Positions 823 to 54,590 of a DNA stretch of 64,000 bases are shown here, piece by piece. The DNA comes from Octopus vulgaris. Its lineage: Eukaryota. The notes under the pieces were generated by a model, which worked only from the letters and a program-made list of their open reading frames with translations, was not told the origin of the DNA and made no database searches. A program made the position numbers and the translations under genes. The stretch covers positions 47,988,001 through 48,052,000 of the forward strand of contig OX597821.1 of assembly GCA_951406725.2 (NCBI GenBank). The letters are read 5' to 3'. The number at the start of each line of letters is the position of its first letter. The first letter of the stretch is position 1.

Positions 823-2455
823 CACTGACAAAAATAAAATTAAGACTGATGATAAAAGTTCTATATCATACAAAATATTTTGTTACTAACACCATACAAA
901 TTATTTTTATCTTTTATACCTAATGCAGAATTTATTTCTCTTTTGAATGATGCAGACAATAGCTATTTTTATACAACTTGAAGAATACTAATGCTAAATT
1001 AATATAAAAATTTTAAATTTACCGGCAAAATTAGTTTAAGACCGTATCATTATAATTTTATTTAAAGCTTATGATTGTAGCAAAAATTAGCAACAAGAAC
1101 GAAATACATATTAGTACTTTGTGCTGTAGCCTTTATTCTTAATAATGGCTGAACAATGCCTCAGCATTGAATTCACTAAGTGATTACAAAATTCTATGGA
1201 AATGTTTTGCCATATTTCATTGACATAATCGAATAATTGTTTTAGATTAGATGGTTTTTTAGCATGGACTTTTTTGGAAACATAATTCCACAAGTTCTCA
1301 ATCGGATTCAGGTCTGGGCTCTGGAGAGGCCATTCGATTATGTCAGTACTATGGTGATCAAAAAATTCCATAACCTTTTTGGCTCTGTGCACAGGACTAT
1401 TGTCCTGCGGATAAATAGCTCCTGGAGGCATTTGGTGAGTCAAATATGGCACAACATTATCCTTTAGTACATTCATATAACCTACATTATTTAGCTTTCC
1501 ATCAACTTTAACCAGAGGGCCAACACCAAAGATACTAAATGCCACCCACACCATCACACCCCACCCCCTGCTTGCACTGTCTTTTTCACGCATTTCAGAT
1601 GGAATTCCTCGGTTGGGTGACATCTGACATATGTTTTACCATCTGATTCAAATATACAGAAGCATGACTCGTCACTCCAATGGACCCTGCACCAATCTTC
1701 GGCAGTCCATTGAGCATGGCTTTTTGCGAAATTAAGGCATTTGAGTTGATTTCTTTCAGATATTATTGGCTTTTTCCTAGCAATTCGTCCATGTAGCCCA
1801 AATTCTCTCAAACGGTTGCGGACGGTTTGTGGTGTAAAAATAACACCATTCTCATTGGACAATTGTTTACAAATGTCAACGGCTGTCAACATTCAGTTGC
1901 CTTCCAAAAGTCGATGGATTCAATGGTCTAACTACACTGTCGTTTTTCTTGGGGTGCCAGTCCTTTGCCAATCTTTATATTGACCAGTCTCTGAGTATAA
2001 CTTCCACACTTGCACACAAGCCATTTTACTGCACTTTAGTTGCTTGCTAATGTTCAAAAAGGAAACTTTTTGCTGGTGAAGTAATACGATTTTTGCTCTC
2101 GTGACTGGACTGAGGCTACGTTGTCTTCCTATTATTAATCAATTGTATAATAACGTTAAATTATAACACTATATAGTGCAGTTAGGCTAATTGTGTGACC
2201 ACCCATTTTGGCAAAAAAATTTGCATACATATTACATGGTCTTAAACTAATTTTGCCGGTAAATTTGAAACGTTTATATTAAGTTAGCATTAGAACTCTT
2301 CAAGTTGTATAAAAATAGTTGTCTGCATCATTCAAAGGAGAAATAAATTCTGCATAAGGTGTAAAAGATAGAAATAATTTGTATGGTGTTAGTAACAAAA
2401 TATTTTGTAAGAAATAGAACTTTTATCATCGGTCTTAAATTTATTTTCGCCAGTG
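823..2455 (-). mobile_element. Full-length Tc1-family DNA transposon with ~220-bp IR-DR terminal inverted repeats
   Basis: TA|CACTGACAAAAATAAAATTAAGAC at the left end and GTCTTAAATTTATTTTCGCCAGTG|TA at the right; TIRs 823-1044 and 2236-2455 with inner/outer AAAAT..TAAGAC direct repeats; TA target site. Confidence 0.95.
1111..2133 (-). pseudogene. Tc1 transposase pseudogene (DD34E)
   Basis: Motifs GRIARKKP, WSDES, QDNSPVH, WPLQSPDLNPIENLW, with 34 residues between the second D and E; start codon decayed to ATA, in-frame stops in the N-terminus, frameshift near 1560. Confidence 0.93.
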
Positions 2456-7257: not shown

Positions 7258-9239
7258 CCCTCTAGTGGTGAAGTTCTGTAATTTCCATAGCTAGTGTGGT
7301 GGGGTATAGAGAACTCCACTCATAGTTTAGCTATGTTTAGTACTTTTTATTAGTTTATATGTGTTCTGAAGCAATAATATTACCAAAAAGCATATTCTGA
7401 TATAATGTATTTATTTAACATGTAAACAAAAAGCAAATGAATACTCTTTGAAAATGAAGGTCAAACAAAATAAAACTATTTTTTGGTGGGGAGAGTGCTC
7501 CTTTCATATTTACTGCTTACTCATTGTTTGCACTATCATCCTCATCACTTTGAGCAAAGCAGTCAATGCAAATGTGCATCACATGTTCCAGGTAGATAGG
7601 CTTATAGCACTTCTGGTGGCAATTTCTTGTCTTATGATCTCTTGACCTGGGGCATAATGAGCATATTTGTATGGAATCTTCATGATGATATTTTGGAGGC
7701 AATTCCTTAGATACTAAGAAATGTTGAATCTTCCTTTTCAAGTCTTTCCTCAAATATGAAGATACAATTATCAACAAATTCCTCAAAGAACTTTCTAACA
7801 GGTGCAAACTTATCTTCTAACCTTCTTTCAGCCCAGGTGTGGATGTCATCAAACCTCATAGACCTCTGCAGGATACAAAATCGCTGCAAAGACATAGTTG
7901 CTAGAAAAAGCTCAAAACTTGTACCATTGGTTGCACAAACATCTTCCATATTCATTTGGCTAACTCTAAAAACTCCTTAGAGATTAAAGCAGTCCTATTG
8001 CAGCTTTCATCTCCTTTTCATTAGTATGTCTCTCTTTTGACTTATCTTTATATTTTCCTTGTTTACTGTCAGTTTAGAAATTAGTGCAGGCTGCTAATTC
8101 ATTCAGAAGTTCTTGTATGAGAAACAAATACCAACAGTCCTTTGCAGCATACACATGTTTTGCTGCCCGTCTTGGTCCTGGTGAATCCTGGTATATGTTG
8201 TGTGCACTTGCACTCCATGGTAGACATGGGGGAACTTTGCAGCATACACATGTTTTGCAGCCCCTCTTGGTCCTGGTGAATCCTGGTATAAGTTGTGTGC
8301 ACTTGCACTCCATGGTAGACATGGGGGAACTTTGCAGCATACACATGTTTTGCAGCCCCTCTTGGTCCTGGTGAATCCTGGTATATGTTGTGTGCACTTG
8401 CACTCCATGGTAGACATGGGGGAACTTTGCAGCATACACATGTTTTGCAGCCCCTCTTGGTCCTGGTGAATCCTGGTATATGTTGTGTGCACTTGCACTC
8501 CATGGAAGACATGGGGGAACTTCTTTCCAGAGAGTTTTATTATTTTTGCTTATAAGCTGTTTTTCTGTGTTGCTGGTAGCCTGCTGTTCTTCTTCATCAT
8601 TAGCTTCATCTGTTTCTTCTACAGGATCATCTGAGGTAGTCTGCAACATGCCATCTGCTTCAGTTCCTCCTTCATCTGTCATTTATTCTTCATCTGTTGT
8701 TTCTTCCTCAGCTATACTCTCTTCTTCCTTTTCATCTCGTTCTTCATCAAGAAATTATCCTAATTTGTCTATGTCTAATTCTCTCTCTCAATTATTCCAG
8801 TTGTCTTTCATAGTCCATTGGGAATCTGAAAGGAAAGAAGATTTCTCACTTTTATGACATTCAGAACCATCTAATAACAAAAGAAAAAAAAAGATGTTGG
8901 TCAGTTGAAAATAATATATAAGTTTTTGCGAGAAATAATCAGCCTTTCAGATATAAAAATAAATAAAATAAACAGTAATAAAGAAAACGAAACAAAAATG
9001 TACCATCTCAATAAATAGTACAGTGAATGGTATGGTGAAATATGCACAACCCTAGACACTAATAATATGTGTGTACACTTCTCATTACTCAGCAAGTGAC
9101 TGAGTGGAATTGTGAATTAACTCAGTGGAGTGTGCCAAGAAAATACATGGATGGAAAGCACTATCACTGCTACAAGATGTAAGATACACATATACAAACA
9201 TCACCTGGGGTGTGAGATATCCTACTGCTCCACTAGAGG

Positions 9240-15417: not shown

Positions 15418-15583
15418 CATATAAATGCAAAACAAGGTGGAAAGAATAGTACTAGAATACCAAAGATAGGGTAATATGCATTTTTATTAAAGCTACAAAA
15501 AGATCACAAAACCTTTTACTCAGTAACAGTAACTGAGTAACAGTTTTTGTGATATTTTTGCAGCTCTAATAAAAATGCATATA
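15418..15583. mobile_element. Small fold-back insert with one-sided extension
   Basis: 15474-15523 is the reverse complement of 15532-15582; ~55 bp extra on the left; TA-rich flanks. Confidence 0.6.
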
Positions 15584-15702
15584 TACAGGGGTTGGACAAA
15601 ATAATAGAAACACCTAGCATCATAATTTTGAAATATCTATAAAACCATCAAAAGCTTGTTTATTTTTACGTTCTTTGATTTATTATTAGTGTTGCTTAAT
15701 AT

Positions 15703-16110
15703 TAGAAATATTAAAATTTCTAAGTCTCTCTAAAGGAGATTACAGCAGCGTTACTGGAAATTAATAGTTATCGCCATACTAATATGGCAGTCTTATAAAT
15801 ATAAGGCTAAAGCTGTCGCTAATTAGCTCCATAAGGCCATCGCCTCAAGCTAGCTATTTGACACACAAACTGCATCCATTATAAACCTTCAAACTACGCT
15901 GCATTGATAAAGGGCAAATACCCTGAAACATGTCTGCAGCTGTCTGACTGGCAGGATGAAGCGGCTGACCTTCCCTGTTCGAAGGTTTATAATGGACGCA
16001 GTTTGTGTGTCAAATAGCTAGCTTGAGGCGATGGCCTCATGGAGCTAATCAGCGACAGCTTTAGTCTTATATTTATAAGACTGCCATATTAGTATGTCGA
16101 TAACTATTAA
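15703..16110 (+). mobile_element. Fold-back Penelope-type insert with a hammerhead-like motif in the loop and a 12-bp TSD
   Basis: gttgcttaatat at 15691-15702 and 16111-16122; 134-bp inverted arms 15761-15894 / 15977-16110. Confidence 0.8.
15898..15940 (+). ncRNA. Minimal type-I hammerhead ribozyme candidate (U3-A8 core variant)
   Basis: GCUGCA-UUGAUAA-AGGG(caaaua)CCCU-GAAAC-AU-GUC-UGCAGC: 6-bp stem I, 4-bp stem II, palindromic ACAUGU stem III, GUC cleavage triplet. Confidence 0.6.
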
Positions 16111-16459
16111 GTTGCTTAATATGTTTTGCTAAAATTGCTGTTTCTTTTCGGATATCATCAGAAAAAGGAAATTAAAATTCATTAAAATGAAAGATTTATC
16201 GAACTTTCAAAGAGGTCAAATTGTTGGTGCTTGTATGGCAGGTGCTAGTGTAATGAAAACAGCCGAAATGTTTGGTGCATCAAGAAGAACTGTCTCGAGA
16301 GTAATGACAGCCTTTGAGAAAGAGGGGAAAAACCTCCTCGTCAAAACAAAACTCTGGAAGATAATCAAAACTTTCAGACTCTTATGTGAATTGTTAGAAA
16401 GGATCACAAAAATACAGCTCCCAAATTTACTACAGAGCTAAATGACCACCTCGAGAACC

Positions 16460-17155
16460 TATATTATCAGGGTCGACAGTGGCAATGGTAGCAGCAGCAG
16501 AGACATGAACAGAACCACCAGCAGCCCCATTGCCAGTGATAACAACAACAGATGTAGCACCACTAACACCCGAGCATGGAGATACATCGGTTGTTCCGGT
16601 AACACATTCAATCAATGCCTCTCCAACCACAGATCCTCCTTCAGGGTACCGGAAAGGAGATATGTTATTGTTTTAGCCAGCCATGAATGGTAGATGATGA
16701 TCGCTGGGATTCCATACACAATATCATGGAGAATCCTAGAAAATCTAGGCCCCTACATAAAAGGGAGAAAACATTGTAGACAGTGCATAGTGGAATGGGC
16801 AAGGATACTAAAGGACTCCCTCGACCCAGGGAACATCTTTAACTCAAGAACAGAGATTTTCGGACTGTGCTTGCATTTCAGGAAATTCCTGCTGGCCTAA
16901 TGGAACCCACAAGATAACAGGATCATTTATGATCGATAGCCAAAGGGAGTTCCATGTTGTTGACATTGAGTACTCCATTTTCTAGATCAGCCACTCACTA
17001 GAGAGAACATAAGCCAACAGGTTTGTGATATGATGATATGCAATCAAGCTAAGCACTTTATGGACGTGAAAACCAGGGCAATCCCATAAACTAACCTTAT
17101 CTAACTTTATTTATATACTATGCTGCTTCTTTTTCGGATTTATGTTTTACCGACT
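16460..17155 (+). pseudogene. Penelope-like element 3' fragment (GIY-YIG endonuclease plus 3' non-coding region)
   Basis: RYIGCSGNTFNQCLSNHRSSF...LASHEW*...YTISWRIL...PY...CRQC..E...FNSRTEIFGLCLH..FLL; one TAG stop at 16691-16693. Confidence 0.8.
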
Positions 17156-17184: not shown

Positions 17185-17430
17185 AATCTTTTACTTGTTT
17201 CAGTCATTTGACTGTGGCCAGGGCTTTTGGTCAAAGAAATTGGCACCAGGACTTATTCTTTGTAAGCCTAGTACTTACTCTATCAATCTCTTTCACCAAA
17301 CTGTTAAATTTTGGGGATATAAACACACCAGCATCGGTTGTCAAGTGATGGTGGGGAGAGAAACAGATACCTAAATATATATATATATACATATACTATA
17401 GGCTTCTTTCAGTTTCCATCTATCAAAACC
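17185..17430 (-). mobile_element. SINE S1 fragment
   Basis: ttttacttgtttcagtcatttgactgtggcca...aggacttattctttgtaagcctagtact. Confidence 0.8.
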
Positions 17431-17489
17431 AGAAGGCTTGTTCAGCATGTATGTATATGTAGTATACATACATATATATACATAAATAT

Positions 17490-18310
17490 ATGTTTCCATC
17501 AGATGTGTCTCAGACGGATCTATGGCATTAAGTGGGAGGACCACATCAGTGATCTTGAGATATTAGAAAGCTCTCGGTGTGAAAGTATAGAAGCTCTTGT
17601 GTTGAAGCAAAGATTCAGATCTAGTGATCATCTGGGCAGGATGAAAGATTCAAGGATGCCAAAACAACTCTTTTATGGAGAGTTAGCTAAAGCGAGAACG
17701 ACCTCCACATAAACCAAAACAGAGGTATAAAGACTTGCTGAAGGCTTCCTTAAGAGAGGCCAGCATCTCTCCTAACACATGGGAGGGCATAGCTATTGAC
17801 TGTAGCAGGTGGAGAAGGATTGTGTATGAGGGGACAGCTACTTTTGAGAAATCTTGAGTTGTACATGAAAAAGTAAGGAGGGACGTCAGGAAGGGCATCG
17901 CTGTTGCACTTCCAGATGGTAATGGTCTTCCTATGACGCTGACATGCAGTGTCTATGCAAAACTCTGCCTCAGTAAAGCTGGACTCAAGAGTCATCTTCA
18001 TAGTCATAAAGTGGGACTGATGATTGACAACCAGGCCGCTAGTGGTGGTGCTACACATCATACTAATCATATCTGTCAGGCATGTGGAAGGGAGTGTAAT
18101 TCAGCAGGAGGACTTAAATGACATGCAAAGGTACATGAAGCCCAATTACAATTACAGCCAGCTGTTGCCAGTAAAAGGTTTTAGCTGCCAATTCTGTATA
18201 AGATATTATAGATCTCAAGCTGGGCTAAAACGTCACATTCAATCACAGCACCATTAACAGTTAAGCCTCGTGCAATGGTCATACTTGATATCAAGGGGGC
18301 AGCCATTATA
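17490..18310 (+). pseudogene. RTE-clade LINE 3' fragment with three C2H2 zinc-finger remnants
   Basis: FHQMCLRRIYGIKWEDHISD...RMKDSRMPKQLFYGEL...RYKDLLK; then CSVY..KAGLKSHLHSH, CQAC..AGGLK*H..H, CQFC..QAGLKRHIQSQH. Confidence 0.8.
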
Positions 18311-29004: not shown

Positions 29005-30002
29005 TATGCTGACATGGTTGCTACGTTAGGGGATGGCTCTCCAGTTTTACCAAAAGTACAAAAGTGAGCAGCTGAATTTAAAATGGGGAGAGTCTTGAAG
29101 ATGACCAAGGTTTGGATGTCCTGCAACTGCCACCATCAAGGAAAACATTGATCATGTTCACCATATGATGATGGATAATAGACGATTGACTATAAATCAA
29201 ATAGCCAATGCTATTAGCATATCTTGTGAGAGAGTTGAGAATATTCTGCACAATGAACTTGGCATGACAAAGGTTTCTGTTCAGTGGATGTCACATCTGA
29301 CACCTGATCAAAAGCACACCAGGCTGATCTCAACAACGGAAAATCTGACTTTGTTTGAAATAGATCCAGTTGGTTTCCTAAAATGTTTCCCAACTCAGGA
29401 TGAGTGTTGGGTTCATAACTTTAAAGCAGGAACAAAGAGATAATCCATGCAGTGAAAACACCCCTCCTCACTTGCTCCAAAGAAGGCCAAGGTTGTTTCA
29501 TCTGCAGAGAAGATAATGACCTCAGTTTTTTGGAATGCAAAAGGTATTGTGTTTATTAACTATCTTCAAAAGGGTCCCACCATCAATGGATGGTGCCAAC
29601 TTGCTGAGGCAGTTATGAAAGGCTATCAAGACCAAACACCCAAGAAAGTGATGAAGGGGGTTTTGTTTAATCAGCACAATGCTCCACCACACAAGTCCAT
29701 TTCAATGGCTGTTGTGTTTGACTGTGACTTTCAGCTGGTTGATGAGCCTTCCTATTCTCCTGATTTGGCACCATCTGACTATCATCAGCTTCCCAACACG
29801 AAAGAAACACTTGGCTAGGTATCAGTATCTCAGTGATGATGTCATATCTGTTGTTGACTTTTTCGATCGGCAGGATGGAAGCTTCTTCACCAATGGGGAT
29901 CCATGTGGACCACAAGGAGGTCTATGTTGAAAAATAAACCTCATTTGGTCACATTCATTGAGAGTATCTTGGTTAGCCCATAAGCTTTCCAGTTGACCCT
30001 CA
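29005..30002 (+). mobile_element. Mariner (DD34D-type) transposon remnant, 5' truncated
   Basis: LGMTKVSVQWMSHLT, TQDECWVH, SVFWNAKGIVFI, HNAPPH, YSPDLAPSDY; TIR-like end aagctttccagttgaccctca|ta. Confidence 0.88.
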
Positions 30003-44759: not shown

Positions 44760-45825
44760 TCATCATAATTTAATGTCTGTTGTCCATTCTGGCATAGGTT
44801 GGATGGTTTGACTGGGCTGGACGGCTGGAAGGCTTCACCAGACTCCAGTCTGATTCGGCATGGTTTTCTATGGTTGGATGCACTTCCTAACACCAATCGC
44901 TCTGAGAGGGTGCTTTTACATGCCTCCAGCACAGGTGCCAATTTGCGTGACACTGGTATCTGTCACAACTGTGATTTTGCTCAGCTTGATGGGTCTTATT
45001 CACAAGCATGACATACTGCCAAAAGTCTTAGTCATTGCCTCCATAAGGCCCAACACTCGAAAAGAACTCAACCAGTTTGCCTCCGTGAAGTCCAACACTC
45101 AAAAGGAATTCAGCCATTTTGCCTCTGTGAGGCCTAACACTTGAAAGGAACTCAGCTACTTTGCCTCTATGAGACCTAACATGCAAAAGATGTTCTTTAC
45201 ATGCCACCAGCATGGGTGCATTGGCTTGAGAGGGCCTCTCAAGCACAGCACATCACCAAAGGTCTCAGCCACCAGTCATTGACTCTGTAAGGCTCAAATT
45301 TCCAAAGATTCTGCTTCACCACCTCATCCCATGTTTTCCTGGGTCTACCTCTACCACAGGTTCCCTCCACAGTTAGAGTGTGACACTTCTTTACACAGTT
45401 GTCCACATCCATATGCATCACATGACCATACCAGCACTGTCGTCTCTCTTGCACACCACATTTGATACCTCTTATACCCAACTTTTCTCTCAAGATGCTT
45501 ACACTCTGTCAAACAAGCACACTGGCATTGCACATTCAGCAAAGCATACTGGCTTCATTTCTTTCAAGCCTACACATGTTCTTAGCTGTCGTAGCCCATG
45601 TTTCACTGCCATGAAGCACAGCTGTTTGCACACAGACATCATACACTCTGCCTTTCACTCTGAGAGAGAGGCTCTTTGTTTCCAGCTGAGGTAGGAGCTC
45701 TCTGGACTTTGCCCAGCTTAATCTTATTCTCATAGCTATGCACTTGGAGCATTCACCTCCACTACTACCTTGGTTACCTAGGTAATGGAAGCTATCTACT
45801 TCCTGTAGCTTGTCCCCGTCTCCCA
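44760..45825 (-). mobile_element. RTE LINE 3' fragment with 3' UTR (contains ~40-bp tandem repeats at 45035-45185)
   Basis: LQEVDSFHYLG...KGRVYDVCVQTAVLHGSETW...WYGHVMHMD...GRGRPRKTW. Confidence 0.88.
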
Positions 45826-45924
45826 CCAGCAGTTGATGGAGTCTATTTTCTGCACATTTTATGAAGTAATTATTAGTTACTAAATGTAAATTACACAATT
45901 GAGGTTTATCAAATCATCAGAGAT

Positions 45925-51629: not shown

Positions 51630-52350
51630 CGATTTCAATTTCACTTGCCTCAACAGGTCTTCACAAGCAGAGTTTAGTGTCCAATGAAGGAAAGGTATGC
51701 ATAAGTGGGCTGGTTACACCCCTGGCATAGGCCGCAAGGTTATGGTCTCATTTAGCTTGCCGAGTCTTCTCAAGCACAGCATATTTCCAAAAGTCTCAGT
51801 CACTAGTCATTGCCTCGGTGAGACCTAATGTTCAAAGGTCGTGCTTCACCACTTCCTCTCAGATCTTCCTGGGTCTACCTCTTCTACAGGTTCCCTCAAC
51901 TGCTAGGGTGTGGCACTTTTTCACACAGCTATCCTCATCCATTCTTGCCACATGACCATACCAGCGCAGTTGTCTCTCTTGCACACCACATCTAATGCTT
52001 CTTAGGTACAACTTTTCTCTTAAGGTACCTACACTCTGTCGAGTATGCACACTGACATTACACATCCATCGGATCATACTGGCTTCATTCCTTGCGAGCT
52101 TACACATGTTCTCAGCAGTCACGGCCCATGTTTCACTGCCATGTAGCATGGCTTTTCGTACACATGCGTCATACAGTCTACCTTTTACTTGGAGCGAGAG
52201 GCCCTTTGTCACCAGTAGAGGTAAGAGCTCTCTGAACTTTGCCCAGGTTATTCTTATTCTAGCAGCTACACTTTCACCGGACCCTCCCCCGCTACTGACG
52301 TGGTCAACTAGGTAACAGAAACTATCAACTTCTTCTAGTTTGTCTCCCTA
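51630..52350 (-). mobile_element. RTE LINE 3' fragment
   Basis: TKGLSLQVKGRLYDACVRKAMLHGSETWAV...WYGHVARMDEDSCVKKC...GRPRK. Confidence 0.9.
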
Positions 52351-53709: not shown

Positions 53710-54590
53710 ATACAATGTAATTATTCTTTTTCATTCCAGGAGCCATTATATTAAACATTTGCAAAGAGTAACCATGCCATGCACAAAAAATTCAGCAAAA
53801 CTGTCAGATTTTCAAAGAGGTCATATTGTTGGGCAATCTGAGGCTGGTCTTAGCCAGTGAAAAGTTGCCAAAAATCTTCAAATTCCTTTTGCTACTGTAA
53901 ATAGAATTATAGTGCAATTTAAAAGCCAAGGAAAGAATCAACAGATTCTCGTCCCGACTGACCTGGGCCCTTAGAAAGGGTCAGGGTTAGGGTTAGTGGA
54001 AAACGAACCCCGTTCAAAGGCTTCTGATATTGCAAAACAGCTAGAAGTTAGTCCAAGAACGTGTGTTATATATCTGCATAAGCTTGGATATTATGGAAGA
54101 GCCACTAGAAGAAAACCTCTCCTTCAACCAATTATCATGAAAAGAAAGAAATGAGGACACGCCATAAAAATCCAGTTCATTTTAGGATAGAGTGATTTTC
54201 TCAGATGAACCCAGATTTGCATTATTTTCAGACAGTAGACGTGTTTGGGCATGGAGGCTTCCCAATCAAGAATTTGATTTGAAACAACTCCAACCAACTG
54301 AGAAACATGGCGGTATCTCTGTAATGGTACGGGGAGCTGTCACCAGCAATGGTCATTCTGAGCTGATTGAATGTGTTGGAACCATAAACTCTGTAAAATA
54401 CATCGAAATACTTAAGCAAGGACTACTTCTGATGTATTCACATAATAACATGTCAATTGAAAATCTTTGGAGTATATGAGATAGAGCTATACGAAAACAC
54501 GACACAAACCTAAAGCTAAAGGTGAATTCTTTTGATTGTTGCATGAAAAGTGGGCAGAAATTCCACTAAGCTCAATGCCGAAAAGACGCA
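53710..54590 (+). mobile_element. Tc1-like transposase remnant
   Basis: LSDFQRGHIVGQ, GYYGRATRRKPLL, IFSDEPRF, IENLWS; stops and a deletion. Confidence 0.85.

Follow-up and report, generated by a model that had tools for sequence, protein, structure and literature searches.

A probable Penelope-like inverted double insertion carrying a U3-A8 hammerhead motif of an abundant octopus repeat family

Introduction

The hammerhead ribozymes of axolotl HHR_Amex1, newt satellite 2 and Schistosoma Sm-alpha have C3-G8 as their core pair. In natural hammerheads U3-A8 is an active covariation (PMC3088659), and it is found in the hammerheads of the Schistosoma Cercyon Penelope-like elements (PLEs), with about 1,300 matches (Cervera and de la Pena 2014, PMC4209133). 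Cleavage of dimers through a palindromic helix III is established, and HHR_Amex1, a poor self-cleaver as a monomer, cleaves well once dimerised (PMC7229834). The layout described for PLE insertions comprises an inverted 5'-truncated copy and a tail of 30-40 bp (PMC8557442; PMC8969392). The PLE protein of Anolis cuts and extends both strands of AT-rich DNA; two internal RNA start sites bound the tail, and uncleaved RNA is used (PMC11167929).

How does the octopus insertion described here compare with these systems? It lies in the window, the whole 64-kb stretch of DNA that was analysed. Like PLE insertions (Craig et al. 2021, PMC8557442; Frangieh et al. 2024, PMC11167929), it has a flanking inverted repeat with a one-sided tail, two 3' ends, an AT-rich target, what appears to have been an uncleaved RNA template, and a hammerhead within about 200 nt of the 3' end. 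Unlike them, it has a tail of 58 nt rather than 30-40, a clear 12-bp target-site duplication (TSD), and neither a linked reverse transcriptase (RT) or GIY-YIG ORF nor an ORF start in the ribozyme. The Cercyon hammerheads resemble its motif in the U3-A8 pair, the type I topology, the palindromic helix III and their occurrence mostly as single motifs in truncated elements; in them helix II is long, helix I is short and A9 is followed by an additional base, whereas the octopus motif has a 6-bp helix I, a 4-bp helix II, no such base, and the bases for tertiary contacts (PMC4209133). The closest architecture is that of the retrozyme hammerheads of HHR_Amex1, newt satellite 2 and Sm-alpha, which share the 6-bp and 4-bp stems, the loop 2 sequence CAAAUA, the loop 1 bases U1 and U6-A7-C8, a 1-bp helix III and a palindromic tetraloop; by this likeness dimer-dependent cleavage would be expected of the octopus motif as of theirs, and what sets it apart is the U3-A8 pair and a dispersed, PLE-style inverted insertion (PMC7229834; PMC2632901).

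U3-A8 cores, palindromic dimers, inverted copies and tails have each been published already. The canonical architecture, U3-A8 and the PLE-style inverted insertion were not found together in the open-licence literature, and a literature search for hammerhead ribozymes and octopus returned nothing on this family, which is apparently undescribed and may already stand in repeat databases. We put at about 0.8 the probability that the insert consists of an inverted and a sense 3'-end fragment of an abundant family, likely placed by PLE machinery, and that the family carries a U3-A8 hammerhead predicted to be efficient only as a dimer.

Results

The 408-bp insert (15703-16110) is abutted by an exact 12-bp direct repeat, 15691-15702 being identical to 16111-16122, where the chance recurrence of a 12-mer at a fixed place is 1.5e-7. 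Its features, in window coordinates, are as follows.

15586..16470, + strand: host, a decayed Tc1/mariner-type transposon with interrupted leader and ORF from 16187; right limit approximate
15691..15702, + strand: left TSD, 12 bp, single copy in the empty site
15703..16110, no strand assigned: whole insertion, inverted copy and sense copy, 408 bp
15703..15760, - strand: 58-nt tail, 3' extension of the inverted copy only, from contig ends at 15703 and the predicted fold
15761..15894, - strand: arm 1, inverted 5'-truncated copy of the family 3' end; beyond 15882/15884, loose ends continue as the complement of the 3' part of the loop
15893..15894, no strand assigned: probable 2-nt microhomology at the inversion junction; arm 1 reaches 15894 and family contigs match from 15893
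15895..15976, + strand: loop, unduplicated part of the sense copy; includes the ribozyme and the 3' side of the extended stem I of native copies
15898..15940, + strand: type I hammerhead motif, U3 (15904)-A8 (15909), stem I of 6 bp, stem II of 4 bp
15928..15933, + strand: palindromic helix III region, 6 nt, predicted dimer interface, with loop AT, GC or TA
15977..16110, + strand: arm 2, native 3' part of the sense copy, stopping 58 nt short of the tail end at a second 3' end
16111..16122, + strand: right TSD, 12 bp

The arms (15761-15894 and 15977-16110) are 134 bp each, differ at six positions and enclose an 82-nt loop (15895-15976), as a sequence-only reading had reported together with the duplication, which is indeed exact. 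The 58-nt segment outside the left arm (15703-15760) is unpaired with the right arm, so the ends are asymmetric. Five of the arm differences are private changes in arm 1 and one is private to arm 2, an asymmetry that is not significant (p 0.22); the family has the arm 2 letter at five of these positions and the arm 1 letter at the sixth, and so the two arms probably did not differ when inserted. The insert had also been said to split a Tc1 leader, and it does. The host ORF (ATG 16187) matches Pfam HTH_28 (E 1.5e-7) and HTH_23 (E 1.6e-7), and contigs of public runs that leave at 15702 continue as after the right duplicate, giving the empty Tc1 site with one 12-mer (42 contigs in run X1, 19 in X5 and 29 in X8; absent among the best six rows for run X2).

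The fixed 3' end of the family (15703-15722) is predicted to fold as a 7-bp stem-loop, and the tail as three small hairpins (z -1.8, not significant alone); the fold at the tail end is a candidate start structure for the RT. The Rfam MIR7723 match to the insert (73.7 bits against a gathering threshold of 200) was rejected as an identity and reflects the long hairpin alone, and a Helitron 3' end was set aside on the presence of a TSD and the absence of a CTRR end.

The window is AT-rich and rich in microsatellites, and blastn found no second copy of the insert family in its 64 kb. Next to the left end of the Tc1 copy lies a separate 109-bp near-perfect palindrome (15474-15582; 54-nt arms, 89% complementary, 1-nt spacer), with no further copy within the window, which may be a MITE or a second insertion of the inverted double kind. 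On the other side, an unrelated GC-richer segment (16465-17130) with no other copy in the window cuts off the Tc1 ORF and has a weak HYR_4C match below the cut-off. Tc1/mariner-type transposase remnants occur at 1114-1892 (- strand) and 29105-29815 (+ strand), with DDE_3, HTH_Tnp_Tc3_2 and Transposase_1 domains, and 53810-53860 (+ strand) is a short match to the start of the host Tc1 ORF. ORF fragments at 45536-45913 (-), 51859-52347 (-) and 17323-17712 (+), which have no Pfam match, resemble C-termini of RTE-type LINE proteins. A tandem-repeated stretch at 8074-8682 (- strand), open in several frames and without a Pfam match, lies within what resembles the start of a piggyBac-type transposase.

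Parts of the element are present in 20 of the 24 listed public runs, under four organism labels. Four runs, one per label (X1, X2, X5 and X8), were aligned to 15640-15985 at 80% likeness, with 2665, 1914, 1831 and 1165 contigs aligned; the contig evidence comes from the best 24 of 507 loose ends and the best 32 of 7616 pieces. Depth is not copy number, but that of the family exceeds the single-copy level by a factor of thousands, and the family is therefore abundant. Contigs end at 15703 in all four runs (47, 55, 49 and 34), with long unrelated A-rich flanks (agreement 0.47-0.50), and because they stop there in unrelated surroundings we take 15703 as a fixed end of the family. Outside these runs, metagenome scans gave no match to the ribozyme motif and none to a 26-mer of the tail, and a term search of the Craig 2021 supplement (PMC8557442) gave no family sequence and one chance 12-mer. 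Viral-contig hammerheads were discarded as chance: among 47 core-plus-loop-2 matches, four had a paired stem II and none of these four a stem I of more than one pair.

The orientation of the parts follows from the joints. Contigs leaving the inner end of arm 1 enter the complement of the 3' part of the loop, and two opposite-strand joints (15870 with 15984/15985) agree that this part of the loop adjoins the arm natively. The native order on the + strand is ribozyme, 36 nt, arm and tail, and arm 1 is therefore an inverted copy. Family contigs match from 15893 (24, 10 and 12 contigs), with upstream letters that differ from arm 1. Seven of the 12 listed joints connect the tail or arm to a sense copy at differing junctions, from 15753-15858 to 15893-15958, each in a single contig with sides of 25-37 nt; none of the seven starts at the predicted cut site, 15935, a small sample biased by the stretch aligned. 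Three further listed joints (15792 with 15936 and with 15938; 15866 with 15947) resemble internal deletions. An intron between the ribozyme and 16079, suggested by two joints at 15792, was rejected, microhomology or deletion explaining the joints. A second 3' end near 15760 is seen at the insert locus and in two listed records (13, 30) that end at 15759-15760 with long unrelated flanks, and the depth ratio of outer arm to outer tail (1.1-1.5) is weakly in its favour. The family includes two or more diverged subfamilies that share the 3' end, with about 85% likeness over 15703-15792, and that part from this copy at 15792/15793. In two contigs the ribozyme is joined, 2-4 nt past the cut site, straight to 15792.

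The hairpin is thus real, as the sequence-only reading held, but the inversion arose at this insertion; it is specific to this insertion and is not the architecture of the family. A foldback or MITE-type DNA element, in which the arms would be terminal inverted repeats and the hammerhead a captured sequence in the spacer, would account for the long arms, the TSD and the lack of coding capacity, and the native upstream sequence, an imperfect inverted complement of the downstream one, could form a longer native hairpin. Such an element should not have a one-sided 58-nt tail and unlike ends, nor junctions that vary between copies, and the direct joint of arm 1 to the ribozyme occurs only in this copy, other upstream letters standing there in family contigs. 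We consider this explanation very unlikely. The hairpin has the layout of PLE insertions, a 5'-truncated and inverted double insertion that carries a 3' tail.

The hammerhead motif consists of stem I (15898-15903/15935-15940), the core TTGATAA (15904-15910), stem II (15911-15914/15921-15924) and GAAA (15925-15928), with cleavage predicted at 15934^15935. The core features are present: a Watson-Crick U3-A8 pair, G5, A6, A9, G12-A14, A15.1-U16.1, C17 and the NUH site. A type I hammerhead descriptor gave this single match on both strands of the 64-kb window, reproducing the letters and the U3-A8 core of the earlier reading; 30 block shuffles gave on average 0.1 loose matches, and in none of the 30 were a stem I of at least 6 bp and a stem II of at least 4 bp found together. 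In the predicted fold the pair probabilities are 0.85-1.0 for stem I and 0.97-1.0 for stem II. Taken by itself, the 82-nt loop is no more stable than its shuffles (z -0.41), and Rfam finds no hammerhead at the gathering threshold and none at E<=10; its models may penalise U3-A8 and the missing helix III.

Is the U3-A8 core a trait of the family or the decay of one copy? In all four runs no alternative letter reaches 5% anywhere in 15899-15929. None of the 26 positions of 15904-15929 varies at 5% or more, compared with 6 of 26 at 15941-15966 (Fisher p 0.023, positions not being independent). The one second family copy listed in full also has TTGATAA as its core, and at least 42-52% of the ribozyme depth passes through 15904-15909, assuming that the depth at 15910-15915 does not exceed that of the next bin. 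Because the core is invariant, a second copy shares it and depth reads through it, U3-A8 was inherited by many copies. The proposed check against a family consensus thus came out for TTGATAA, with CTGATGA not seen and alternatives below 5% in the four runs. On these sequences, U3-A8 appears to be a family trait and not private decay.

A different account is that the core is a decayed C3-G8 ribozyme, altered by two transitions and inherited by a subfamily without selection. A founder effect could propagate such a dead core, and one X8 contig (depth 7.8) has C at position 3, its position 8 not being shown. The aligner seems to trim contigs leftward of about 15905 (no 5' partner letters are listed at 15898 and 15901, where they would be expected), so that a C3-G8 sister subfamily could be hidden among the family copies. 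Against decay, both changes are present with no half-way form listed at 5% or more, the core is invariant in all four runs while the palindrome and stems covary, among contigs aligned on a U3-A8 copy, and U3-A8 is a compensatory pair of demonstrated activity (PMC3088659). Decay is in our judgement improbable. In the 3' strand of stem I the family varies at 15940 (C>A, about 50-65%) and 15937 (C>T, about 30%), with matching 5' letters in two listed contigs, from which we infer covariation of stem I.

The monomer can form at most one pair in stem III: the two-pair form has probability 0, since a 2-nt loop cannot close, and the result is a 1-bp helix III with a palindromic tetraloop. In the runs, the alternatives at 15930/15931 are G/C at 12-17% and T/A at 5-10%. 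The depths of the alternatives match between the two positions in eight of eight comparisons (ratios 0.99-1.04), so that the linkage is read from depths and not from single contigs. AT, GC and TA are three of the 4 of 16 dinucleotides that preserve the palindrome. Such palindrome-preserving variation fits selection for a double hammerhead, lending support to the earlier suggestion that stem III acts as a dimer, and the ribozyme is predicted to cleave well only as a pair.

Loop 2 (CAAAUA, 15915-15920) has the same sequence as in the full-length ribozyme of Schistosoma, and the bases of internal loop 1, U1 (15941) and U6-A7-C8 (15895-15897), are present as they are there (PMC2632901). Because of these matches we class the motif as a canonical type I hammerhead and not as a minimal PLE one. 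By eye, the native upstream sequence is an imperfect inverted complement of 15941-15973 and would form an extended stem I; the 5' strand that closes internal loop 1 is absent here, cut off at 15893. The motif had been called apparently complete, which holds for the core and helices I and II but not for this strand. With neither a stem to close loop 1 nor a tandem partner, the ribozyme of this copy is likely weak or inactive, and selection likely acted on the source RNA of the family and not on this copy. From the predicted cut site it is 176 nt to the nearer 3' end and 234 nt to the end of the tail.

Discussion

How might such an insertion have formed? A GIY-YIG-type cut in AT-rich DNA would leave two 12-nt 3' overhangs. 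Primed by the top strand, cDNA would begin at the tail-end start site and extend over 15703-15894; primed by the bottom strand, it would begin 58 nt further upstream in the RNA, at a second start site, and run from 16110 back to 15893. Both cDNAs would halt early and join at the 2-nt microhomology, the two halves of the insert being first-strand cDNAs that grew inward from opposite 3' overhangs. Because the bottom cDNA runs through the cut site, the RNA template would have been uncleaved or religated. In the family RNA, two ribozymes would pair by the helix III palindrome to give an active helix III, and the dimer would have loop 1/loop 2 contacts of the Schistosoma type. The 58-nt tail exceeds the published 30-40 bp, which counts against the PLE machinery.

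Is the family the end of a PLE or a retrozyme that PLE enzymes mobilise? We regard the two as about equally likely, and hold each tentatively. In the first, the family would represent the pseudo-LTR that belongs to an autonomous PLE, and the insert would be a copy with extreme 5' truncation. The inverted copy, the tail, the AT-rich target and a depth peak at the 3' end fit an autonomous PLE (PMC8557442; PMC11167929; PMC8969392), as do U3-A8 in the Cercyon PLEs and canonical hammerheads in PLEs of Selaginella. Animal PLE hammerheads, however, are usually minimal (PMC4209133), and there is no ORF start between the ribozyme and the tail, although an untranslated leader or an intron could mask one; Poseidon of Anolis differs in that its ORF starts inside the ribozyme (PMC11167929). 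The 276-nt sense reading is closed in all three frames (5-10 stops), with no RT or GIY-YIG domain in the insert, and a 40-aa open frame had no protein homolog, which is a weak test. Among 30 of about 177 listed ORF-type stretches of the window none has a PLE domain, only DNA-transposon and weak domains being found.

In the second, the family would be a non-autonomous non-LTR retrozyme, with a monomer of about 300-400 nt and a circular RNA, that borrows PLE enzymes, and the insert a twin-primed piece of it. This is favoured by the canonical type I architecture, with the loop 2 of Schistosoma and U1 and U6-A7-C8 in loop 1, and by the nearest likeness, axolotl HHR_Amex1 with its 1-bp helix III and palindromic tetraloop (PMC7229834). 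The 276-nt sense reading is without an open frame and is more structured than shuffles (z -3.75), and the native upstream sequence, readable for about 30 nt in short contigs, folds back on the downstream one. Retrozymes have been described as PLE derivatives (bioRxiv 10.64898/2026.07.22.740005). Tandem arrays define the retrozyme class, however, and no head-to-tail junction is seen among the best 24 of 507 loose ends; those past 15703 are heterogeneous (agreement about 0.5). The 64-kb window has no second hammerhead motif, tandem repeats of the class being 150-450 bp. None of the public runs with the element is catalogued as RNA, which weighs neither for nor against a retrozyme. The most novel outcome, and one we consider rather doubtful, would be that the family is a non-autonomous retrozyme whose U3-A8 hammerhead is canonical and stabilised by tertiary contacts, and whose insertions bear every mark of a PLE (two RT start sites, tail, twin-primed inversion and 12-bp TSD).

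The finding adds a high-copy family to the PLE/retrozyme group, which is of modest importance. The insert is a clean natural record of two-ended priming and matches the in vitro biochemistry of PLEs. The three palindromic loop variants offer a probe of the double-hammerhead model, in which matched pairs should cleave and mixed pairs should not. If the family proved non-coding and tandem, the structure of the insertion, beyond sequence likeness, would tie retrozyme mobility to PLE enzymes. If the retrozyme reading is true, the insert would be direct evidence, from its structure, that animal retrozymes move by means of PLE enzymes, and the AT, GC and TA subfamilies would be mutually incompatible partners, a natural self-recognition code of double hammerheads.
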